Part shown: positions 1-19,350 of the stretch, piece by piece | How positions within the stretch are numbered: position 1 is the stretch's first letter | Layout of the letters: each line of letters opens with the position of its first letter | Assembly (NCBI GenBank): GCA_002269645.1 | Contig: NIVC01001023.1 | Location: 1 to 64,000 of the forward strand | Length of the DNA stretch: 64,000 nt | Direction of reading: 5' to 3' | Origin: Macrostomum lignano | Lineage: Eukaryota | The notes under the pieces: generated by a model | What the model was told of the DNA's origin: nothing | Databases searched by the model: none | The model's input: the letters and a program-made list of their open reading frames with translations, nothing else | Program-made: the position numbers and the translations under genes

Positions 1-466
1 CCTACAACAATACCTACACAGAAGCATCAAAATGGCACCCACTAGTGTCTGCAAAGAGAATGAATCTGAAGTGTGGATGAACCTGTACGATGGAAAAGCA
101 GTCGAGACTCTAGAAAAATTAAAGGAAGCCTAAGTTCGCTGAAAACCAGTCAGTGAGAATTTCAATGCTCCACGGATATTCAAAAAGGGATACAAAGCGA
201 GCTGGAGTGAGGAAGTGTACACCGTGGTGAGCAGAGCCCCAAAACATTATCCCTACATGTACAAGATTAAAGACATGCGGGGGCAAGAGATTCGAGGACT
301 CTTCCATGAGCACGAGCTGCAGGCTGTCCCGGACTCACAGCGGCTGTATGTGATTGAGAAGATCCTGAAAACGGAGAAGCGGAAGGGAAAAATTCGCTAT
401 CTGGTGAAATGGGCGGGCTACGACTCGACTGGCTGGGTGGATGAAAAAGACTTAAGAAAGGTTTAG
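1..466 (+). CDS. Retroviral-type integrase C-terminus with chromodomain (partial, frameshifted)
   Basis: Across frames reads YNNTYHRSIKMAP..NLY..PKF..VRIS..IFKKGYKASWSEEVYTV, then the chromodomain YVIEKIL..YLVKWAGYDSTGWV. Confidence 0.85.
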
Positions 467-501: not shown

Positions 502-1310
502 ATGCGAACTATTTTGATTAACAGTGAGCATGCTGAAGGTACTCCTAGTGACTTTAATTTTTACCTGCCTTCACCTATTTACTTGGATCGAAATGTGGAC
601 TATGAGGCAGGTCTGGCTGAAATCCATCTGCCTGCTGCATGGTTCAATGTTGACGAGCCTTACTGCTTCACTGTCTCAGATGGAAGAGAGCATGAGGCCC
701 TGGTTCTTCAACCCGGACGCTTTGCTAGAGTGGAGGAGCTGGTGGAGCGCCTGAATGAGCTGCTGGCCAACTCTGATTCGCTGTTCTTTGATGCAATGAG
801 TGACAGGGAGTCTGAGATGGAGGCTGATGAGTCCGGCCTGATGGGGCGTAGTGGCAACAGGGAATTCGGTATGAAGTTCGAAATCCGCAACTCACGAACT
901 GTGGTGCACAACAACACTGCGAGAGCAGAGCTGTTTCTTCCATCTAGTAAAATTCTGCATTGGCTGGGATTTGGAAACCAGGCTGTGAAAATCCAGCCAG
1001 GGAGCCGCGTGTCCGAGCATTGCATTGGCTGCCCGCGCACCAGCTTAATCAATGTGCACTGCAGTATCGTTGAGTCAACTAATTGCAACTGGAGCTCCTT
1101 GTTGAGAACAGTTGGAATGAAAGCCGGCATTGAATGGGGCAACTATCAAACAAAAATATTTAAGAAAACAATATTCTTCCCGATTCAACGAATCAGTCTT
1201 CTTCACAGCATTCGAGTTCAGCTCGTGACATCTATGGTTGCCCACTGATTGCACAGACTCACAGCCCTGTTCTGCTTACAGTTCAAATTCAGGAGAAACG
1301 CATTCAATGA
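502..1310 (+). CDS. Minor capsid protein (penton)
   Basis: N-term TPSDFNFYLPSPIYL..YEAGLAEIHLP is typical of Polinton pentons; restoring one G near 1227 gives SIRVQLVDIYGCPL..TVQIQEKRIQ* with TGA at 1308-1310 overlapping the next ATG. Confidence 0.75.
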
Positions 1311-1684
1311 ACTACCAGCAGCTAATCCAGCAATATTCGGGGGTGAGGACAGGACACGAAAAGCCTGCACTCTATGGCTGTGGGAGCTTCCCAGGGATCA
1401 TGACATACCAGCCTCCGCCAGCGGCTATATCATCATCATCAGCCTCGACGCTTAGCAACGTCAGGCGCAAAAGAAATACTGAAGCAAGTCCGAAACGATT
1501 GAAGAAAAAGAAGGGCACCCGAAAGGCAACTGGTGGAAATCGCAGTAAGAGGTCGAGCAAGGCTAGTGGGAAAAAGCTTAAGAATAGGAAGACGAAAGCA
1601 AAGAAGAATAGAGCAGGCGGAGGAAAGCGAAAGCAAAAAGTCAGCAAGAAAACTGTGAAACGCGTGCTCGACTCTCTGTCATAG
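1307..1684 (+). CDS. Small Lys/Arg-rich putative core (DNA-condensing) protein, 125 aa
   Basis: ATG 1307 in an ATGA overlap; very basic C-terminal half; sits between penton and capsid genes; LYGC/G motif. Confidence 0.6.
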   Translation: MNYQQLIQQYSGVRTGHEKPALYGCGSFPGIMTYQPPPAAISSSSASTLSNVRRKRNTEASPKRLKKKKGTRKATGGNRSKRSSKASGKKLKNRKTKAKKNRAGGGKRKQKVSKKTVKRVLDSLS

Positions 1685-2972: not shown

Positions 2973-3485
2973 ATGGATGCAATTCAACTACTTAATCTCG
3001 CCAGAAAATTTTTGCCTTACCAAAAATTTCTCATAGTTACTTTACATTTGCGCTATAAAAATTCTCTGCCCTTGAATGTAAAAAGAAAATTTAGATCATC
3101 AATTTCCTTTGAAAACAAGTTTGTTTTTGTCCTACTTCAGCACAATGGCTCATTTGGTCACTGGGTGGTGTGCTATGTTGGGCAAGGAAATCGCATTGAG
3201 TTGTTCAACTCCCTCGGCTGGGAACCTGAAATTTTATCTTTGGTTTATAATTTGTTTCGAGAGATTAAAACAACTGGCTTTTGGCTCCGAAGCAATATAA
3301 ACAGATTTCAATGTGCTAACTCTAATAAATGCGGAGTGTTTTGCATCTATTTTGTTTATCAAAAGTTTCTGTTCAATCGGTCATTTGAGGGGATTTTGAA
3401 GCATTTGCATGCTAATGAAAAAAATCATTTGAATGATAGAATCTTACAGAGGTTTGAAGCCAACTTAAGAAAAAGATGTCCGTGA
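2973..3485 (+). CDS. Adenain-like (clan CE) maturation cysteine protease
   Basis: GHWV (His), ELFNSLG, FQCANSNKCGVFC (oxyanion Gln and catalytic Cys). Confidence 0.85.
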   Translation: MDAIQLLNLARKFLPYQKFLIVTLHLRYKNSLPLNVKRKFRSSISFENKFVFVLLQHNGSFGHWVVCYVGQGNRIELFNSLGWEPEILSLVYNLFREIKTTGFWLRSNINRFQCANSNKCGVFCIYFVYQKFLFNRSFEGILKHLHANEKNHLNDRILQRFEANLRKRCP

Positions 3486-4156
3486 TTTCTAATATTTATG
3501 CATTAAACATGGGAGAAAAGCAAGTTTGCTACGATATCCGCCTCAGGCAGGGAAGCTGCATGATTGTCTGCGGGCCCACCAATGCAGGAAAAACAACCTT
3601 TGTCAAACACCTGATCCAGTACAGAGACGTCATGTTTGATGTGAAGCCTGGCAGAGTTCTGTGGTACTATGGGATCTCACAGGCAGGCCATGCAGAACTG
3701 AGCAGCCTAGGTGTGCAGCTGCGCCAGGGATTTCCCACCAACATCGAGGCAGCACTTAGGCCCAATGACCTGGTTGTTTTCGATGACTTAATAGAGGAAA
3801 CTTCAAACTCTGCTTCAATGCGAAATTTTTTCACAGGAATCGCACATCACTTGCCGTGCTTTTTGGTGATGCTGACTCAGAATATATTTTTCAAGGGAAA
3901 AGAGTCGCGAACAATGAGCTTGAATGTAATGTATTTAGCTATCTTGAAAAACCCCAGAGACCAGCTGCAGATTGCAGCACTGGGCAGGCAGTGCTTTACA
4001 GAGAAGCCCGGCTTTCTGCTGTCAGTGTTCAAGCACGTGACCGCGCAGGGCAGGGGAGCTTACCTGTTCCTGGATTTTCATCCATCAACTCCCGATGAGC
4101 TGCGAGTGCGGGCCAGAATTTTACCCAACCAGCGACCCCATCTTGTATTTGCTTAA
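3476..4156 (+). CDS. A32/FtsK-like genome packaging ATPase
   Basis: Walker A GPTNAGKT, Walker B LVVFDD, HH..TQNIF, KNPRD, YLFLDFHP. Confidence 0.92.
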   Translation: MSVISNIYALNMGEKQVCYDIRLRQGSCMIVCGPTNAGKTTFVKHLIQYRDVMFDVKPGRVLWYYGISQAGHAELSSLGVQLRQGFPTNIEAALRPNDLVVFDDLIEETSNSASMRNFFTGIAHHLPCFLVMLTQNIFFKGKESRTMSLNVMYLAILKNPRDQLQIAALGRQCFTEKPGFLLSVFKHVTAQGRGAYLFLDFHPSTPDELRVRARILPNQRPHLVFA

Positions 4157-4197
4157 GAAAGTGAAGCTTGTTTTTATCAGCTATTGTTTTCATCGCT

Positions 4198-4536
4198 ATG
4201 GAAGTGCTTGATTCACATGCAAGTCTTTTTGCGGTTCTTGCGTCACCTAAATATACCGTGCGCTTCAAGCGGCTGTTGATAAAAAATTGTCCAAAAGAAG
4301 TGCGTTATTTTCTTGTCGAGGCCTGCCATAATCTCTTACAAAACAATCTATCGTTTTCGCTCGATGAAAAAGCTGTTCTTGCAAAGTCAAAAGAGATAAT
4401 TCGAAAAATTACTCACAAAAGAAGAAAGACAGACTTGTTGAAGGCTGGCTTCATCAAAATACTCCCGATTCTGCTTAAGCTGGTAAAGAAGAAGAAGCAA
4501 AATGAACAAATTTTCAGAAATGGTTCTGATTCCTAA
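4198..4536 (+). CDS. Small basic Polinton-type conserved protein, function unknown
   Basis: Intact ORF from ATG 4198 within the viral block; EACHNLLQNN..IRKI..GFIKILP pattern resembles small Polinton ORFs (recalled, not searched). Confidence 0.55.
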   Translation: MEVLDSHASLFAVLASPKYTVRFKRLLIKNCPKEVRYFLVEACHNLLQNNLSFSLDEKAVLAKSKEIIRKITHKRRKTDLLKAGFIKILPILLKLVKKKKQNEQIFRNGSDS

Positions 4537-5194
4537 AGCAGAGTATGAGATGTTGATGCAGAATTTGAAGCCAAATGAGACTACCACTGAAGCTGACTTG
4601 AAGCAGGCTCAGAAGAAATGCGATGACATCTTGTATGCCGAGGATTGTCCAGAAGATGTGAAAACCGCCATGTACCAAAGTGCAATGCAAAGTTTGCTGG
4701 CCAAGCGCAAGCACGCTGGAAAAGAAGGAGCACGCAATACTGAAGCCAAGTTGATGAAAACAGAGACACCCCAGATAAGCACCTGGGAAGAGAAGATCAG
4801 CAAGTCGGTGCCACAGAAATTCAAAACCAGGGCTCGCAGTCTGTGGACGATCCTGTCCACCAATCCAGAGCTGATTCGAGTTTGTGAAAACGGGGAGGTG
4901 GAAATCGCAGGCACGTCAATCCCTTCCTCAAACATACTGGACTTGATTCAGCACACAGTGAGGGATTCGCCATGTGAGCGTGAACCAGTTGGGTGGAACG
5001 AGTTCATCGATTTTCTGCAGCAGAAAAAGCTTAATGTTCCGCTTTCCGCTATTGGTAAATCAGTTAAGAAGAAAATGGCAACCAGCAGAGGGGGTGAACT
5101 GGAGAAAGAACAGGAGAGTCTAGTCAAGGGGTACGGGAGCAACACAGCCTGGCTGAAACTGCCTGCCAGAAAAGTATATAAGAAGGTGGACTGA
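4502..5194 (+). CDS. Polinton-type conserved hypothetical protein, 230 aa
   Basis: Intact ORF; MVLIP..K..MYQ, ENGEV..IPSSNILDL, PVGW..F..NVP pattern recalled from Polinton ORFs. Confidence 0.6.
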   Translation: MNKFSEMVLIPKAEYEMLMQNLKPNETTTEADLKQAQKKCDDILYAEDCPEDVKTAMYQSAMQSLLAKRKHAGKEGARNTEAKLMKTETPQISTWEEKISKSVPQKFKTRARSLWTILSTNPELIRVCENGEVEIAGTSIPSSNILDLIQHTVRDSPCEREPVGWNEFIDFLQQKKLNVPLSAIGKSVKKKMATSRGGELEKEQESLVKGYGSNTAWLKLPARKVYKKVD

Positions 5195-5223: not shown

Positions 5224-5700
5224 ATGAACTACATTGACTTCCAAGGATTCCCGTGCAACAGCACAAGCAAAAAATTTGTTGTGAAGGAGTTGGCAGTTGT
5301 TCAAATCAGAGCGGGGAGCTACCGCATTGCTCACCATGTGTACGCACCTCCGTATCCATGGGAGAGAGTCTCACCTGACATGCGAGTTTACTACAGACAG
5401 CTATCTAAGAGTCTGCACCAGTTTAAGTGGAATGATGGAACCCGTCCGTACATGGAACTGGCGGAAGACATTCTGAGCATTGCCAGTGGTCCGATCTGGT
5501 CAAATGGGGAAAGGAAGTCGATTTTTCTGACTGAGCTGCTTGGAAGACAGGTTTATAACCTAGAAGATTTGGGAGCACCCTCGACTGAAGATTCAGATAC
5601 TGGCTGTGCAGTGAGAAATTCGTTGCTGCACTACAGTTGGCTTAAGCCAAAGTTCTGCATCAACTTAAGAAGCGAGCAGTGTCCGTGGCACACGAGCAGT
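5224..5700 (+). CDS. Polinton accessory protein, possibly DnaQ/DEDD exonuclease-like fold; true 3' end uncertain (frame stays open to 6075)
   Basis: YIDFQGF..FVVKELA, HQFKWNDG, YNLEDLG, CAVRN..WL motifs; the tail after about 5700 overlaps the TBP ORF and looks like noise. Confidence 0.5.
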
Positions 5701-5743
5701 AAAGTTGGCAGAAGCAGATTTGGTGAAGAAGTTGACGATCGAA

Positions 5744-6316
5744 ATGAGCCCACCAGCTACAGCCCTAAGAGTGACCAATCTGGTTGGCGGAGTAGATCTG
5801 AGACTGGATGGTGGCAGGGGCGCTCAGCTGCCTCTACGGGAACTGGCTCTCAGCATGGCTCATGTGATCTACCGGCCCGTCTGGCCCCGGGTGCTCATCA
5901 AGCGGATGCGGATTCCCAGAGTGACTCTCCTACTCTACCCTACTGGGCAACTGAGCATCTGCGGTGCCAAGACCCACGCAGACGCCAAAAGGGCTGCCCG
6001 TCGCTTCGTGGCTATGCTGCATCGGAGAGTGCCGGCTCAACTGCTGCCTCATCAAACAATTTGTGTTCGAATTAAAACTATTACTGCTCATGGACAGCTC
6101 CCAGTTCATTCCGCACTTTCCTTATTAATGTTAAAATCAATTATCCCAAACGCCGAATATGAACCAGAATCCTTTTCTGCTTTAATTTTCAATTTAAACT
6201 TTTGTAAATGTCTGCTTTTTCACAGCGGCTCTTTTGTTCTCAGTGGAGCTCGGTCCTTGAATCAGTTGCATACCGATAGCATGCGTCTACTCAATGTAGT
6301 TCTTTCCATTGAATAA
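5744..6316 (+). CDS. TBP: TATA-box-binding protein (TBP)-like protein, virus-encoded, 190 aa
   Basis: Two TBP repeats: TNLVGGVDL..YRPVWPRVLIKRMRIPRVTLLLYPTGQLSICGAK and EYEPESFSALIF..CLLFHSGSFVLSGAR. Confidence 0.88.
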   Translation: MSPPATALRVTNLVGGVDLRLDGGRGAQLPLRELALSMAHVIYRPVWPRVLIKRMRIPRVTLLLYPTGQLSICGAKTHADAKRAARRFVAMLHRRVPAQLLPHQTICVRIKTITAHGQLPVHSALSLLMLKSIIPNAEYEPESFSALIFNLNFCKCLLFHSGSFVLSGARSLNQLHTDSMRLLNVVLSIE

Positions 6317-6323
6317 AAATAAA
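6312..6323 (+). terminator. Tandem AATAAA polyadenylation signals closing the + strand viral gene block
   Basis: GAATAAAAATAAAA overlaps the TBP stop codon. Confidence 0.6.
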
Positions 6324-6894: not shown

Positions 6895-9800
6895 CTAGAC
6901 CAGTCGGATGCGCTTCAGCTGATCGTGGGATGCGGGCGTCAGCGCATAGTGTCCGTAGGGCAGGCTTCGATTACTGCTAAGCCACACTCGCTTATCCTCC
7001 CACACCGATAGGCTTCTTTTCTCCATGACCGACGTGAAGATTTCGTGTTTCTTGGAAACAATCGCTGTCATGGCAACCATCTGCTCTTGCTTGGACTCGA
7101 ACGCGTCGACATAGTTCGCATGCGAAATTTGCTGTCTTACTACTGACTGCTTCACGCCTTTGGCAGTTTTCTTGATCTTTGCACTCGAATTCTCGGCAGG
7201 GAGAAACGAATAAAGTTTTGGACGCAAAAGAATCCACTCCTGGTAAATTCCACCAGCAGATTCATCTTTAACGCAGCCCAGCTTTCCTTTTAACTCTTCA
7301 GAGAAATGCGGATGGTCTCGAGAATAGTTGGATGTGTCAAGTATTTTTTCCTCTCTAAGCTTCGGGATTACCTCCGATGTTAAATCATGATTCTTGAAAG
7401 CTAGAAAAAATGAGTCAGTATCACCTCCGCAAAGCATCATGTCTCTGGAACCGTCTGAATGACAGAACAGCGGTCGGAGCCTGTCATATAGTAGGCTGTA
7501 CATGGCCATCTTAGAGAGATCGAGAACTGCCTGGCCAACGAAAATGGCCTTGTCAAGCGTGACTTTATCTTTTTTGAGCTGAAAAATGCTCAACGACTCA
7601 TTGATAATCGAGAATGCGGCACAGTTTGGTCGAGAGGTGCAAGTTTCTGCTTGAGTCTGGTTAGTGCAAATTCGAACATCGCATCTTTTTCGAACGTTCT
7701 CCATAGTTTTTCCAAAGAGAGAATTGTTTTTCAATTTGTAAAAATCCTTAGCAAACTCGGAAGTTGCCAAAGCTCTTTTTTCATTGTTGCTGGCAATGTA
7801 CGGCGCGAAAATATTTTCCTGCTTGAACGAAATCATTTTTTTGACGCACTTGATCCGCATTCCGTGTTGCAGGTAAAATCTTAAAACGGTGCTGTGAACT
7901 ACGTAAGAATCCTTGTCGGTACAGGTGAGTAGAAGCTTCTCCGTTGCTTGAAACTTAGCTTCAGCATTGCCAGTTCGCTGTTCAGCAATCTCTTTCCATA
8001 GTTCGGCCATGTACGGCGAGAATTGATCTGGCTGTGGTTTTGATTTTTCAGGTGCAAACGGTAACTCCTGAGTCGAATCGTGAATCTCAGCTGGGTATTC
8101 TAGATCGAGTTGAACAAGGTAGGCGATCTCGGCTTCTGGATTGAGTGACAGAAACCGATTGGAGTCCCAGAACTGGATTTCCTGTTCCGGTACCCACCTG
8201 AATTCCCTGCATGGAAGCGGAAGCGACAGGGCAAAGCCATACAAGTTGTTCATATCGATCGGCATGAGGCTTACACTCTCTTGCTGATCATCATAACCTG
8301 GCAAGCTAGGATTATTACCTTTGACGCAATGCACATTAATGAAGGACATGCCTCCTCGTATTCCCTTCTCAAACAGATGATACATGTCAGCATCAGTCAG
8401 CTGCTCTAGAACCACTCCAGTCGACTTTAGAGCTGAGTCGTAAGACAAACCAGGAGTAGTAAAGTAGTGTACCGGATCCAATCCGTCCTCTTTCAGACTG
8501 GCCTGTCGGAATGTCTCGAAAATGTCAGCCAGCTGCCTTACATCCATTTCAAGATAGGCGAGCATATAATCCTTCAAACTTTTGCATTGAAATGCCGCCC
8601 ATGCCGCTCTTGCTCTATTGTAGTCGTCGTCGGAAATTCCCCTATCGGAAAGTCGATTAAAAAAAGCATCTTTAGGCGGCAAAACCGACTGCTCGAGAAT
8701 CTCAAATCCTGTGAGGTAATCATATGGGAAGATCCCTTTTTTTCGAAGTAGCTCTCTTGAAAGATGTGGTCTTGACTCAAGCATTTGCATTGTCAGCTTG
8801 CATTCAGCTTCGGGAAGATTAGCAAACAAATTGGACAAACTTCCCTTCAAAAAGCAGAGCGAGTCGATGAACTGAATTGTAAACATGATTGGCACAACTT
8901 TTCCGTTCTTTACGTAACTTGCAACCGGGAATTCCGCCCTTAGTGACAAGTATCGCTCGGATGATTGCGGAACAACACTAAGTTTCCAATTTTTCATGCT
9001 CCCAAGCGCAGTGGAAAGTAGAAGATGAAGGTCGTAGCCACCTAAGTTGTGAAAAACCAGGGGCAGAAACCGGCGTCGGAGCTGTGCTCGCAGGTTGCAT
9101 TCTTGACATGCTGCACCTTTGTACTGTCCATTTAAATGATCGTGGTCAAAATGTTTATCTGTAGAACTTTTAAAGTTCTTCTTGCAGTAGTGACATACCT
9201 CAGCAGAATTGAAATCATCCATGACGGTCGCGGATGATCGGTCAGCCGGCTGGTGGCTATGCTTCTGGTTCCAGTGAAATATATCCTGAGCCAGGCTTTC
9301 AAGAGATTTGAGAAAACCAAGGATACACTCATCAGGGTCCGCATTGCAAAAGACCTTGTACATGTCTCCTTCTGGCCTAAGCGGAGGTCCTGTCATGCCT
9401 TCACGAGGCACTGCAAGAAAAGCTGCTGCACATGGTTCATGCTTTGAGATCAGGTTAGCAGGGTCTGTGTTCGCTCGCAAAATGGCTTCCAGGTCGGCAT
9501 AGGCAACGAATGGTGGACTGACAGTGTTTTGACAGTTTCGGAACTTTATTTCATTCTGTCCTGGAACTGGAAGCGTTTCTTTGACAGGATTTTCTGCAGT
9601 AATGCAGCTGGGGCGGCCAGAGCAGCTGGGGCGGCCAGAGCAGCTGGGGCGGCCAGAGCAGCTGGGGCGGCCAGAGCAGCTGGGGCGGCCAGAGCAGCTG
9701 GGGCGGCTGGAGCTGCAGGTGGCACAATTGCATTATGCGACTCATTGTCGCTGCCCTCCTCTTCTAGGATTTCCATTTCGTGGTCGTCTTCAATTAGATG

Positions 9801-10514
9801 AAGTTGTTTTCCAGCAATCACCGGAACCGAAGAGACAGGTTGCTGCTGCTGCTGACCAGCGTTGAATTCCCTGAGGAACTGATCCAGGACATCTTCCTCT
9901 ATGAAGTTTATGACAGCAGCAGCCTCGACTCCAGCAGCCTCGACTCCAGCAGCCTCGACTCCAGCGGCCTCAACTCCAGCAGCCTCGACTCCAGCAGCCT
10001 CGACTCCAGCAGCCTCGACTCCAGCAGCCTCGACTCCAGCAGCCTCGACTCCAGCAGCCTCGACTCCAGCAGCCTCGACTCCAGCAGCCTCGACTCCAGC
10101 AGACAGCTCAACTTCAAATTCTGCAGCTGCTGAAGACCCGCTTGGCCTCATCCTCTTCAATGTAGAGTCAATTACTTGACTCAAGTGAGCTGATAGCAGA
10201 CTCCTGCTGGCTCCTTTTTTCTGCTGGATCTTCTTTTCTCTCTCGTTGCTCTTTTTGATGGCGCGGATTACTTTCCAGCGGTTACTTTCTTGCTTTTTCT
10301 TGTCATCGCTGACGATCCTGTGTCCTCGATGATATGCTGGAATTTTTCCCTCCTGCAGAGCTTCGACGGTGCCGCACTGGTCGCATGCCAACCAGCATGA
10401 GACCAGACAGTTCTCATTCTCGTGGTGTCTTGGGGACACGCCTCCAAGCAGGCACACTTCGCAGCTTATACAGACCTCATAGAGGTCTCTATGACAACTT
10501 TTAAAAGTTTTCAT
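6895..10514 (-). CDS. polB: Protein-primed family B DNA polymerase with endonuclease-VII-like insert; probably one ~1206-aa ORF joined to 9546..10514 by a 1-nt frameshift
   Basis: KFRN..PPFVAYADLEA (ExoI, upstream of the track start), CHYC..DHDHLNG..CQECN, FHNLGGYD, KGIFPYDY, DMNNLYG, KLKNNSLFGK, GGDTDS, LRPKLYS, AKGV; pol frame is open from about 9732 with no ATG upstream of ExoI. Confidence 0.9.
9604..9711. repeat. 18-bp coding tandem repeat, 5 full plus 1 partial copy (APAALA on - strand)
   Basis: Unit GCAGCTGGGGCGGCCAGA read directly. Confidence 0.95.
9917..10100. repeat. 15-bp coding tandem repeat, about 12 copies (AGVEA on - strand)
   Basis: Unit CAGCAGCCTCGACTC read directly. Confidence 0.95.
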
Positions 10515-10615: not shown

Positions 10616-10624
10616 CTTATATAG
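10616..10624 (-). promoter_or_regulatory. TATA box of the polB transcription unit
   Basis: CTATATAAG on the - strand about 100 bp upstream of ATG 10514. Confidence 0.5.
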
Positions 10625-10974
10625 TAATTTGTACATGCATGCCCTCTCCTTATCATATCGTATATGAACATCCAGCCATGCTCAGGTAATAATTACTTTA
10701 CCGTTATAGAGGCCACCGGCTGTAATTAGTGTATCCCCCCGTCCCCTTATCCAGGTAAGCAACACCAGCCGTCCTCTGTGCAGTTGTAAAACTTTATAAC
10801 CTTACCCTAACACAGAGCACAGAGATTGGCCACCCCTCTTATCTCTGCAATGTTTAGCCGTTCCCAATGCACAGAGATAGGATCCTCTCCGCAGTGTATT
10901 TTTCCTATATCCTTTTTGCCGCCTATCTCGCCAGTGCTAGTGCGGCAGTATCATGAATCGCCTCCATCTCCGCA

Positions 10975-11447
10975 GTGCTTAGCCGTCCCCAATGCACAGA
11001 GATAGAGCTCATATCTCTGCAGTGCTTAGCCGTCCCCAATGCACAGAGATAGAGCTCATATCTCTGCAGTGCTTAGCCGTCCCCAATGCACAGAGATAGA
11101 GCTCATATCTCTGCAGTGCTTAGCCGTCCCCAATGCACAGAGATAGAGCTCATATCTCTGCAGTGCTTAGCCGTCCCCAATGCACAGAGATAGAGCTCAT
11201 ATCTCTGCAGTGCTTAGCCGTCCCCAATGCACAGAGATAGAGCTCATATCTCTGCAGTGCTTAGCCGTCCCCAATGCACAGAGATAGAGCTCATATCTCT
11301 GCAGTGCTTAGCCGTCCCCAATGCACAGAGATAGAGCTCATATCTCTGCAGTGCTTAGCCGTCCCCAATGCACAGAGATAGAGCTCATATCTCTGCAGTG
11401 CTTAGCCGTCCCCAATGCACAGAGATAGGGCTCATATCTCCGCAGTG
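10975..11447. repeat. 47-bp subterminal tandem array, 10 copies, each with an internal hairpin
   Basis: AGCCGTCCCC recurs every 47 bp from 10981 to 11404; stem CAGAGATA/TATCTCTG around GAGCTCA. Confidence 0.95.
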
Positions 11448-11926
11448 TATTTTTCCCTGTACATTTGCATTGCCGCCTATCTCGCCAGTGCTAGTGCGGC
11501 AGTATCATAATTCGCCCTACTACTTATAGTCATAAACCGGATCTAGGAGTCAAGGACAAGTGCGTAGTTTATGACGATGGTTTATAGGCCTAGGCCAAAC
11601 CCTAAAAACGATCAGCCTTGTGTATCAACCCAGCCCTAAATTCTCCTAAATAAATATGAGAACAGTGTTAAAACATGAATCTGTCTTCAATCTTGAAGAT
11701 CTTGAAAACTTGAATCTTCAAATCAAAGAGCAAGAAAAAACCACTCGGTTTAAATTGGATTATTATAATATTACGAGTACTTCAGCTTTGTGCTTCATGG
11801 CACTACATGTACTAGGATAAATAATGTGGCCGCAGCCTTCTGCTGCAAGCATAGGACCGCAGTCAAATCTTAGGCACTTCTGTCCGCTGCTGTATCTGGA
11901 ATAGGAACTCGTCACTGCCAAGATGT

Positions 11927-16429: not shown

Positions 16430-17945
16430 ATGATCAGGTCCCCAGGCCCAGTCTCGTATGCGGATGCTGTTCAGCCCAAGCCGGTACTAGGCCTTATCGC
16501 GTTCAGGAACAAGGCCGCCAAGGAGCACGAGGCTGCCGCTGCTGCTGCCGCTGCCGCTGCCGCCCAATCAGCACAGTCCGTTCTGACCAACCAGACTGCA
16601 TCGCCTGCTAGTAGATCTGCACCTGCGGTATCCGAACAATCCACTGCTAATCCTCTGGCCACTGCTAACGCGCCGCTTGAAACTTCAGCTAAGACCAAGA
16701 TGCCTGCAACGACTCCAAGCAATGCTGATCCAACCAACATAGACAATGCCGCCACTTCTTTTGCTGGAAACGGTGAGAGGGGCTTTACCCAGGGGGACGT
16801 GCTCGAGGTGGTTCTCGGGGCACTCAACCGGATCATGGAGATCGAACCGGGGCGTCTGCTCACTGCCTGGGAAGCAAGCCAGCTTGCTATTCGGGTAGTG
16901 ACGGAAGTCCTGACGACCTTCATGAATCCCGGAAGAGTGCCCACTGTCAGGGCAGGTGAAGCCAAAGCAACTTGGTAAGCGAAGGCAGATCTGAGCCCTG
17001 AAGAAAACATCTTACTATACTATCATGAGAATATTATCATGAGAAAATCATGAGAATTTTCGGCCCCATGATTGCATGGTCAGAGCTCTGACCTACCACA
17101 GGGACAGGGCTGACCCTGATGATCTTGATAAGGAAGATATAGAATCTGACATCCTTAACATCCTAGATATTGACGTCCTCATGGAAACTAAAAATCTCAG
17201 GTCTGGGGGAGCCTCTGGCCCTGACCAGATCCCAAATATTGTCCTCAAACGGGGGCTTGGTCCGGACTCTGTCAGAAACATCGCAAAAATTTTCAATACG
17301 AGCTTTCTTCTAGGCTATTTTCCAAAGGCCTGGAAGCGGGCAACTATCAAAATGATCCCAAAACCTAAGAAATCTAGACATGAGATCAACAACTACAGGC
17401 CAATCAGCTTAACCTCCTGCTTGGGTAAACTTTACGAAAAGATTATTGCTAGGAATCTTAGAATTATCTTAGAAAACAAGGGCATTATAAATGAAGACCA
17501 ATGTGCGTAAAAACAAGATCACTGTACGTTTGACAACATTGTGCGACTCACAGACGATATACTAAAAATGAAGCAATGGAGACATGTGACACTCGGTGTT
17601 TTCCTTGACGTCAAGGGTGCCTTCGACGGTGTCTGGCACAGCTATCTCAGGTATCAGCTCCTGGGGAGTGACCTGCCGCACAACATGATCAGGACCTTGT
17701 CCAGCTACCTAGAAGATAGGGAGATCTCCATCCAGGCTGGGGGGGGGGGCGATCAGCAAAGGGTTCAAGCCCGTTGCAGGCGTTCCACAGGGTGGAGTCC
17801 TCTCTCCGCTACTATTCATCATCTAAGTCAGCACGATCCCCATCTCGCGTGACATCAAGGTTAAGAAAAGCCAGTTCGCTGACGACCTGGCCGTCTGGGC
17901 GAGCGCCAGAACATCTGCGCGCCCTGACCTGGAGGCTGCTGCCCG
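16430..17945 (+). mobile_element. Decayed non-LTR retrotransposon (I/Jockey-like): ORF1 tail plus RT fragment; no endonuclease domain seen
   Basis: SYADAV ORF1 motif; GPDQIP, WKRATIKMIPKP, YRPISLTSCLGKLYEK, FLDVKGAFD, GVPQGGVLSP, FADD with stops and frameshifts. Confidence 0.85.
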
Positions 17946-18336: not shown

Positions 18337-19350
18337 ATGGCCCGCCGAGCTCTATCCAACCTCTGGGATAATAATCGCCCGACTGAAGAGTTAACTAGCC
18401 TCGACGGTGATATCCCTGAACACATAGTTCCCCTAGGCACTGAAAACAACGGAACTGATAATTGGGAGGCTGATCAATATCTAGCTTGGGCTATGTCCTA
18501 TGATAGCGACACCGAGTCTGAAGTTTTTGACCTCCCGCTGCTGGCTATTGGCGGGGTTGTGAACGGCGCCCCTGCTGCTACTGCCTCTGATTTGACCACC
18601 GCCTCAGCCGCCCTCTTTGAGGTCTCTGTTGAGGAGCTGACCACAACCGGCCCTGCCTCTGCTGCGCCCGTCTCTGCTGCTGCCGCCTCTGTCTCTACTG
18701 CGCCCGTCTCTGCCGCCGCCGCCTCTGCTTCGACTACCTCCCACCGGGCCTCAATATTATCAGCCTCTACGCTCCTTCTCTTCGACGATGAGGACGAGGA
18801 TATGTCTGAGGAGATCGCCGTGGTTCGTGAGCGCTTTCCTCGCATTGTGGCCTCATTTTTCCGCGGGGACATTGACTGGTTGAGGTCTCGCCACCCTGGC
18901 GGGCTGCCCTCCCAAGCCACCTTTGTCGGAGCCTTTAATCGGGTTCTTGATACTTTGGTGTCCCGAGGGGCTGATCTGCGGGAGGTGCTGGAGGCGGAGA
19001 CGCTACACCAGGATTGGTTAATGGGGCGTAATTCGTATGCCCTCGACTCGGAGGCGTACCTGGCCGGTCCGGGAGCGCGCCCGACTGCGTGGGATGAGCC
19101 TGCAGTAGCTATCCGGTCTACCAACTGGGAGGAGCACCTTTCGTTGGTGCGCTATACAGCGTCTCTACGCCTGTGGAGGCTGGAGGAGGATCTAGATTTG
19201 GTAAGATATTACACTGTATACACAACACATCTAATCATATACCTTGCATATATTCTATCTACCACATTGCCAGTCATCCGACTACTGCTTCGAGAGCGTG
19301 GAGGAAGAGGCCGCGTACGAGACAGCCCTGAGGGAGCGTATGGAGATTGA
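18337..19350 (+). CDS. Intronless acidic ORFan, 337 aa
   Basis: Long intact ORF with an Ala/Ser/Thr linker and a globular-looking C-terminal half; no recognisable family. Confidence 0.55.
   Translation: MARRALSNLWDNNRPTEELTSLDGDIPEHIVPLGTENNGTDNWEADQYLAWAMSYDSDTESEVFDLPLLAIGGVVNGAPAATASDLTTASAALFEVSVEELTTTGPASAAPVSAAAASVSTAPVSAAAASASTTSHRASILSASTLLLFDDEDEDMSEEIAVVRERFPRIVASFFRGDIDWLRSRHPGGLPSQATFVGAFNRVLDTLVSRGADLREVLEAETLHQDWLMGRNSYALDSEAYLAGPGARPTAWDEPAVAIRSTNWEEHLSLVRYTASLRLWRLEEDLDLVRYYTVYTTHLIIYLAYILSTTLPVIRLLLRERGGRGRVRDSPEGAYGD

Follow-up and report, generated by a model that had tools for sequence, protein, structure and literature searches.

A TATA-binding protein gene in Maverick/Polinton elements of Macrostomum lignano and a candidate TATA-like box with G at position 6

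Introduction

ORF24 of KSHV is a viral TATA-binding protein (vTBP) that works with TATTWAA late boxes and host RNA polymerase II (Pol II) and is changed at V122 and T124; as described in the text of PMC12529657, it is multidomain, belongs to a six-factor complex, is without the stirrup glutamates and binds Rpb1 directly. The two stirrup glutamates of TBP bind TFIIB or Brf, and the viral TBPs described in PMC7221094 mostly differ at this site and are accompanied by a viral TFIIB; those of large nucleocytoplasmic DNA viruses nearly all have a viral TFIIB alongside and are often diverged at the stirrup. White spot syndrome virus, a nuclear animal DNA virus, has a TBP, no recognised RNA polymerase and the late motif ATNAC (PMC1550435). 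For Polinton-type viruses, Starrett et al. 2021 (PMC8502044; the preprint likewise) name "TBP" in a figure legend, that of Fig. 5, which deals with MELD viruses carrying adintovirus-like PolB.

Here we analysed a 64,000-nucleotide stretch of the Macrostomum lignano genome (positions 1 to 64,000 of contig NIVC01001023.1, hereafter the window), in which a TBP gene lies within a Maverick/Polinton (adintovirus-type) element. The element and the beta- and gamma-herpesviruses have in common an altered TBP DNA face and a non-canonical box before genes, the timing in the element being a proposal only; unlike ORF24, the element TBP is a bare 190-aa core that keeps E186 and E188 and has no Rpb1-binding domain. 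The TBPs of large nucleocytoplasmic DNA viruses (BFVD matches) are also core-only and diverged and have the same fold (TM about 0.7, identity 8–21%), but no viral TFIIB was found in the element and its stirrup is invariant. White spot syndrome virus likewise combines a TBP with the lack of a recognised polymerase, and differs in being far larger, unrelated and in its late motif. With cellular TBP and TLF/TRF2 the element TBP shares the saddle fold, N69, V71, L114, F190, F207 and YEPE, whereas it is only about 25% identical to host TBP, carries fixed changes at V122, T124, Q158, N159, V161, P191 and V203 and mostly Pro in the F99 column, and falls on a separate branch. Compared with Mavericks/Polintons in general, with which it shares TIRs starting AGTAGT, a 6-bp TSD, pPolB, an RVE-chromo integrase, an ATPase and a protease, the element adds the TBP and a PC4-domain gene.

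A TBP in a Polinton-type virus is less novel than first proposed, since Fig. 5 of PMC8502044 already labels a gene TBP. Both cases concern a TBP-like gene in a mid-size Polinton-type virus; there it is a legend label in a section on non-animal datasets, whereas the present case concerns animal Mavericks, three lineages and a matching box, and the accessible text of that paper yielded no analysis of TBP residues, selection or promoters. The terms TBP, TATA and PC4 were not found in the accessible text of the Polinton papers PMC11161782, PMC11131425, PMC8097293, 10.64898/2026.10.13.758929, 10.64898/2026.06.19.733378 and 10.1101/2023.08.22.554363, whose supplements may hold annotations. The literature searched, with Repbase and subscription journals outside its coverage, contained no study of a Maverick TBP or its promoter in the text accessible. 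What is new is the proposed pairing of a re-tuned TBP face with a TATA-like box bearing G at position 6 (G6 box) across three lineages; the TBP gene alone has precedent.

Results

The host element and its gene order

Our results support the TBP gene as a fixed, selected component of a Maverick/Polinton (adintovirus-type) element. The initial annotation had placed the gene in such an element, and TIRs, 6-bp TSDs, pPolB, integrase, ATPase and protease all bore this out. TIR pairs starting AGTAGT were detected in 7 of 13 regions and clear 6-bp TSDs in 4 of 13, the others being partial or running off contigs. The window copy is the right part of one element; it ends at 11524, its integrase starts left of the window, the putative capsid gene is fragmented and pPolB is shorter than in other copies. 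The features of this copy are as follows.

502–1248, plus strand: putative minor capsid (penton), labelled from position, no Pfam match; frame differs from other copies near the 3' end
1307–1684, plus strand: small basic (Lys/Arg-rich) ORF
1687–2967 (approximate), plus strand: putative major capsid, in pieces here and 427 aa in other copies; label inferred, no Pfam match
2973–3485, plus strand: adenain-like cysteine protease (Peptidase_C5 E 4e-4, just below the curated cut-off); no box upstream
3476–4156, plus strand: packaging ATPase with Walker A (weak Pox_A32 E 0.027, below the curated cut-off); conserved start 3509
4198–4536, plus strand: conserved 112-aa ORF, no assigned function
4502–5194, plus strand: conserved 230-aa ORF, no assigned function
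5224–6075, plus strand: 283-aa ORF with an N-terminal domain of ~165 aa; its tail overlaps TBP codons 1–110 in another frame
5744–6316, plus strand: viral TBP ORF, 190 aa, two PF00352 repeats, single uninterrupted frame
6895–9396, minus strand: protein-primed DNA polymerase B (pPolB; PF03175 E 7e-13), N-terminus shorter than in the 1152-aa other copies
9546–10514, minus strand: Cys-rich/repeat ORF, 322 aa here, behind TATATAAG at 10616–10623
10961–11524, no strand: terminal-repeat region with a 47-bp array; element end ...CTACTACT at 11524 (AGTAGTAG on the minus strand)

The gene order, taken from other copies, runs from the PC4-domain gene through the rve-chromo integrase (identified in copy L051), putative penton, basic ORF, putative major capsid, adenain-like protease, ATPase, two ORFs without assigned function and the 283-aa ORF to TBP, the final plus-strand gene ahead of the converging pPolB on the opposite strand. 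The capsid genes are ORFs of fitting size and position without a Pfam match, and a genome search with PF04665 gave no match. Pfam scanning of the element ORFs revealed no TFIIB-like gene, a very remote homologue being possible; the genome search with PF00382 gave 15 matches from 23 candidates, none inside an element, and no RNA polymerase gene was seen in the element. The DEDD-like label of the 283-aa ORF was inferred from its D-x-Q/E-G-F start; it has no Pfam match, and its look-alikes are unnamed, arthropod-rich clusters. For the domain at 5224–5720 the nearest Atlas clusters are likewise unnamed and arthropod-rich, with a weak lead (0.88) to Maelstrom, a piRNA-pathway protein of RNase H-like fold. 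The PC4/Sub1 domain protein (PF02229) is encoded in both families (L051:2281-3054, L030:4795-5433) behind a canonical TATA; it may be another transcription cofactor that was captured, or may serve pPolB as an ssDNA-binding protein.

A genome search with the window TBP, in which 150 of 231 candidates were scored, returned at least 152 matches; 25 of these were identical across 190 aa. TBP subfamilies lay at about 88, 80, 76 and 38% identity to the window TBP, and the 38% group formed a second family (family 2; 26 matches at ≥83% identity over ≥156 residues). At loci with the identical TBP, the upstream DEDD-like ORF was present in 20/20 and the pPolB end in 19/20, so the gene keeps its neighbours in other copies of the element, a check that had been suggested at the outset. 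A third TBP-like lineage was found in one of seven other pPolB regions fetched as controls. Its gene had 67 matches from 73 candidates in the genome and lay near pPolB and an ATPase in 4/4 further regions, with pPolB in pieces in some, and one of the two third-lineage proteins scanned passed PF00352 (E 2e-7).

The TBP protein and selection on its gene

The claim that 5744–6316 encodes both TBP repeats was confirmed by the profile and structure searches that had been recommended for it. The Pfam profile search matched PF00352 over both repeats (E 7.9e-25), solved TBP structures matched the product (best E 2e-18), and the superposed model adopted the two-repeat saddle fold (TM 0.83, rmsd 2.1 Å to human TBP 1cdw). 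The pLDDT of the model was 96.4 with a 98-row alignment rich in cellular TBPs and only 37 for a single sequence. A database protein with 99% identity carries the label Macrostomum lignano, and an AATAAA at 6312–6317 overlaps the TBP stop codon. The ORF is a core without an N-terminal extension and without introns, as originally described, but the absence of introns is no mark of viral origin, because the cores of the host TBP and TLF genes (L037, L038), located elsewhere in the genome, are equally intronless.

Pairwise counting among 10 family-1 copies gave a dN/dS of 0.16 for TBP codons 1–110 (dS 0.32) and 0.13 for codons 111–183, where dS (about 2.3) is saturated; the comparison gene, the ATPase, gave 0.11 in family-1 copies. 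These ratios indicate that purifying selection is acting on both halves of the gene. Positive selection on the C-lobe was ruled out at this ratio and with dS saturated, and the contrast along the gene is due to recombination.

Recombination and ORF overlap inside TBP

6075–6100, no strand: recombination breakpoint zone in TBP, about codon 117

DNA identity to three sister subfamilies dropped from 91–97% to 53–64% at about 6100, and one contig changed subfamily at 6093. The drop and the switch together imply that a left module with most of the TBP N-lobe recombined with different pPolB arms inside the gene; the TBP reading frame is intact across the recombinants. Several diverged C-lobe and pPolB arms share one left module, and the breakpoint common to them falls at the end of the ORF overlap. 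The 283-aa ORF extends without a stop through the first 110 codons of TBP (129 in family 2), which synonymous shuffling produced by chance with a probability of 0.003–0.016 per family. The overlapping tail shows no amino-acid constraint, its dN/dS of 2.6 being a consequence of selection on the TBP frame. Possibly, the open overlap serves translational coupling or a frameshift fusion.

DNA-face and stirrup residues

Residues were placed in yeast numbering via host TBP in 16 element-type sequences, with identity down to about 33%, and the DNA-contact positions were those of Table 1 in PMC12529657. N69, V71, T112, L114, E186, E188, F190 and F207 were canonical and invariant in 16/16 element TBPs; F116Y, T124C, Q158K, N159T and V203K were changed and equally invariant; and V122S/T, V161T/S and P191S/T/N were changed with variants (16/16 each). 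The window TBP does not match the canonical, pseudo-symmetric base-contact set of N69/N159, V122/V213, T124/T215 and P191 (it has N159T, V122S, T124C, T215S and P191S). The earlier reading that the first-repeat Asn is kept and the second replaced by Thr held across all 16 sequences (N69, N159T), as did retention of the YEPE stirrup: the acidic C-lobe stirrup for TFIIB/Brf is present in families 1 and 2 through E186 and E188. The adjoining L189 is Ser in the window TBP.

The intercalating phenylalanines had been read as W, Y, F, F. The last three hold, since F116 is Y65, F190 is F144 and F207 is F159 in the window TBP, but the first position is Pro in register: Pro48 occupies the F99 column and Trp47 aligns to R98, so that a W would need a compensated one-residue slip. 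The F99 column is Pro in 14/16 element TBPs, with Trp one place earlier, and W is not established there because sister family 2 reads His-Pro-Arg. Changes were also found at K201, K211 and K120, and the helix-2 basic patch is largely kept in family 1 (K133, R137, K138, K145R). Affinity for DNA or TFIIB may be weak, given the Pro or ambiguous residue at F99 and the changes at L189, K201, K211 and K120. By eye, the third-lineage TBP-like protein has Tyr-Pro at 116–117, Thr at 122 and Ser/Thr at 159, retains F190-P191 and has YDAE as its stirrup (first Glu to Asp). The changes V122 to S/T and N159 to T/S are common to all three lineages.

A G6 box precedes most module genes

The pattern (C/T)(T/A)TAAGA(A/G) occurs 7 times on the sense and 0 times on the antisense strand of the window element (at 451, 1159, 1577, 3464, 4152, 5177 and 5664). 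Most copies of the box read CTTAAGAA, a variant of TATA whose sixth position is G. In the window, 7/9 module genes have a box upstream; the two exceptions, the protease and the 230-aa ORF, are without it in 7/7 modules.

451–458, plus strand: CTTAAGAA box, 51 nt before the putative penton ORF
1159–1166, plus strand: TTTAAGAA box, 148 nt before the basic ORF
1577–1584, plus strand: CTTAAGAA box, 110 nt before the putative major capsid start
3464–3471, plus strand: CTTAAGAA box, 45 nt before the conserved ATPase start 3509
4152–4159, plus strand: CTTAAGAA box, 46 nt before the 112-aa ORF
5175–5184, plus strand: TATATAAGAA, which reads as canonical TATA and as G6 box, 47–49 nt before the 283-aa ORF
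5664–5671, plus strand: CTTAAGAA box, candidate autoregulatory promoter, 80 nt before the TBP start

De novo enumeration ranked CTTAAGAA as the top word in 2/3 modules (corrected p 3e-4 and 1e-4); the top word of family 2, TAAGAA, was not significant (0.12). With a relaxed pattern, 7 modules gave 59 sense and 4 antisense boxes, about 15 being expected on the sense strand, where the modules (5 of family 1, 2 of family 2) represent only two independent families and the motif was defined post hoc. Of the sense boxes, 46/59 sit 30–160 nt upstream of starts, in intervals that make up 16–19% of the length, a count that misses the 112-aa ORF start in 3/7 modules. The distance from box to ATG ranges from 35 to 149 nt, and the boxes occupy the 3' ends of upstream genes in different reading frames. 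The pPolB arms showed no clean strand bias of the box, and the strict pattern had no copy in the terminal 10–10.9 kb of the window element and none in the 47-bp unit.

Canonical TATATAA/TATAAAA boxes precede the PC4-like gene in 7/7 copies and are also found before the terminal ORF, family-2 pPolB and family-2 TBP (TATAAAAG); some boxes can be read both ways. In the third lineage, TATAAG occurs 27 times in sense and 3 times in antisense in 4 regions, 14 of these coming from one tandem-duplicate region, and TATAAGC lies 43–51 nt ahead of the penton in 4/4 regions. A complete TBP-less Maverick, the single control, showed no excess (counts of 9 and 6, with 9.1 and 6.7 expected). The boxes of all three lineages align to TATA with G at position 6; CTTAAGAA departs from the TATA consensus at three positions, and the third-lineage TATAAGC might be near enough to TATA for host TBP to read.

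The TATA at 10616–10624 had been suggested as one possible target. TATATAAG does exist at 10616–10623 on the minus strand, and the 47-bp array, a second suggestion, is present inside the terminal repeat, but the G6 box CTTAAGAA is a better candidate than either. In TBP-DNA structures, V122 and T124 face base pair 6 and exclude G, and P191, V203 and L205 face pairs 1–2. The change V122S/T would fit the G6 box in all three lineages, and the loss of P191 together with V203K would fit the relaxed first two box bases of family 1; the third lineage keeps P191 and its box keeps TA.

Origin of the element TBPs

In quick trees of 72 and 35 rows, which included part of 150 listed matches, families 1 and 2 formed one branch with seven proteins from metagenomes or read assemblies, apart from host TBP and TLF (SH 94; 88 in the smaller set); P0002-4, P0009, P0014, P0162 and P0163 are proteins from short contigs. 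The phylogeny proposed with the initial annotation thus places the element TBPs on a branch of their own. Recent capture from host TBP or TLF was rejected (element TBPs with host TBP, AU p 0.013; quick tree, long branches), and host TLF paired with P0013 (SH 93, 99), apart from the element TBPs. The third lineage sits on a very long branch and its placement is unsure. Three unnamed 170-aa TBPs (P0039, P0040, P0114) are found nearby. A metagenome search returned 32 TBP loci, of which the 14 inspected resemble archaeal, cellular or giant-virus TBPs, and searches of viral contigs returned only two unrelated TBP loci, one in an archaeal provirus and one in a giant virus. L077, L079, L108 and L116 hold archaeal TBP genes, some in tandem, beside restriction-modification or helicase genes and in one case in an archaeal provirus.

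Other elements

At L147-L148 (G000:C362 549868-551121, minus strand) the third-lineage TBP-like frame runs into a P-loop kinase-like frame, labelled from its sequence; in C889 the two frames are separate. Third-lineage TBP frames have no obvious ATG at the first strand, which suggests splicing or another start. In a TBP-less, AT-rich Maverick (L120-L122, G000:C506 477328-494424), many ORFs start right after TA(T)AAAA-ATG-like sequences, which are reminiscent of poxvirus late starts. Elements of 9–10 kb with TIRs and pPolB, in which no capsid genes were seen, lie at L129-L133 (G000:C491 285031-295129; C173 199634-208632); one of their ORFs shows a match to the beginning of window ORF 18337-19350, and the window may therefore contain a fragment of an element of this type. 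Broken reverse transcriptase frames resembling a non-LTR retrotransposon were recognised from sequence motifs at window positions 16430-17852.

Discussion

An altered-specificity viral TBP probably reads a private box, mostly CTTAAGAA, and would thereby bring the host's TFIIB and Pol II to late genes. Most virion-module genes stand behind one box and the element has its own altered TBP, which suggests that it likely activates them with its own promoter-reading factor. What we observe is the gene with its modelled fold, the selection on it, its residue pattern and where the motif is placed; from these we infer DNA binding, TFIIB use and timing as follows. Host TBP would start the genes behind canonical TATATAA, namely the PC4-like gene, the terminal ORF, and either the 283-aa ORF or family-2 TBP. 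The viral TBP would then activate the G6-box genes, comprising most integrase, virion and packaging genes and, in family 1, its own gene, by recruiting host TFIIB and Pol II at the boxes. The result would be an early/late switch resembling that of herpesvirus vTBP with TATT boxes, achieved through a bare TBP core and host TFIIB. Redirection of host Pol II and TFIIB had been proposed initially and stays the favoured mechanism, with invariant stirrup glutamates and no TFIIB-like or polymerase gene seen, but the proposed target has changed. Eight contig sets (guessed RNA or unlabelled) cover the element evenly, intergenic DNA included, without splice joints, and were not used for expression because such coverage is indistinguishable from DNA of a multicopy repeat.

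The same invariant stirrup, next to a heavily changed DNA face with F99 lost in register, could instead belong to a decoy or repressor that sequesters host TFIIB/Brf or TBP regulators, or blocks promoters, host TBP reading the boxes as weak TATA. The helix-2 patch retained in family 1 and the boxes that double as canonical TATA are consistent with this. We consider it unlikely, however, as the substitutions on the DNA face show no drift but are fixed, the G6 box accompanies the lineages that bear a TBP and is not in excess in the one TBP-less element, and CTTAAGAA lies three positions away from the TATA consensus.

It is quite improbable that the TAAG core is a late initiator for the RNA polymerase of a helper large DNA virus, in the manner of virophages, with the TBP as an accessory. 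We know of no such helper virus in flatworms, the element encodes its own TBP, and usable starts lie at least 35 nt past the box, which fits a TATA position. On the other side, the box contains (A/T)TAAG, the baculovirus late initiator according to the text of PMC1550435, and there is a literature on promoter motifs of virophages and PLVs.

We also give little credence to a DNA-bending role outside transcription, whether at a replication origin or when the element integrates or is packaged at its terminal repeats, in which case a different factor would read the motif. The TBP C-terminal lobe travels with the pPolB arm in recombinants and the element codes for a PC4-type ssDNA-binding protein, yet such a role would leave the invariant TFIIB-stirrup glutamates unexplained, and the strict box is missing from the terminal region and the 47-bp unit. 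Very improbable is the same private-promoter role with Brf and RNA polymerase III as partners, or with a viral adapter that goes unrecognised among the unassigned ORFs: the same glutamates contact Brf1/2, most viral TBPs in the text of PMC7221094 pair with a viral TFIIB-like protein and three module ORFs are unannotated, but the long ORFs and the AATAAA after TBP suit Pol II, and none of the PF00382 matches falls in an element.

Under the favoured reading of a private box served by the element's own TBP, Maverick/Polinton capsid-gene expression and virus-like behaviour would gain a named factor and a named target. The pair is testable with one purified protein and an 8-bp site, and three TBP-box pairs within one genome permit comparative tests. 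If true, this would be the smallest known viral late-promoter system, working without a viral polymerase, a viral TFIIB or a multi-factor complex, and a natural altered-specificity TBP informative on the TBP-DNA code. More tentatively, and at somewhat less than even chances, many animal Mavericks may carry such a one-protein orthogonal switch, in which a TBP with V122S/T and N159T/S reads G6 boxes ignored by host TBP and uses host TFIIB; if so, these Mavericks would gain a true early/late viral programme with lineage-specific TBP-box pairs.
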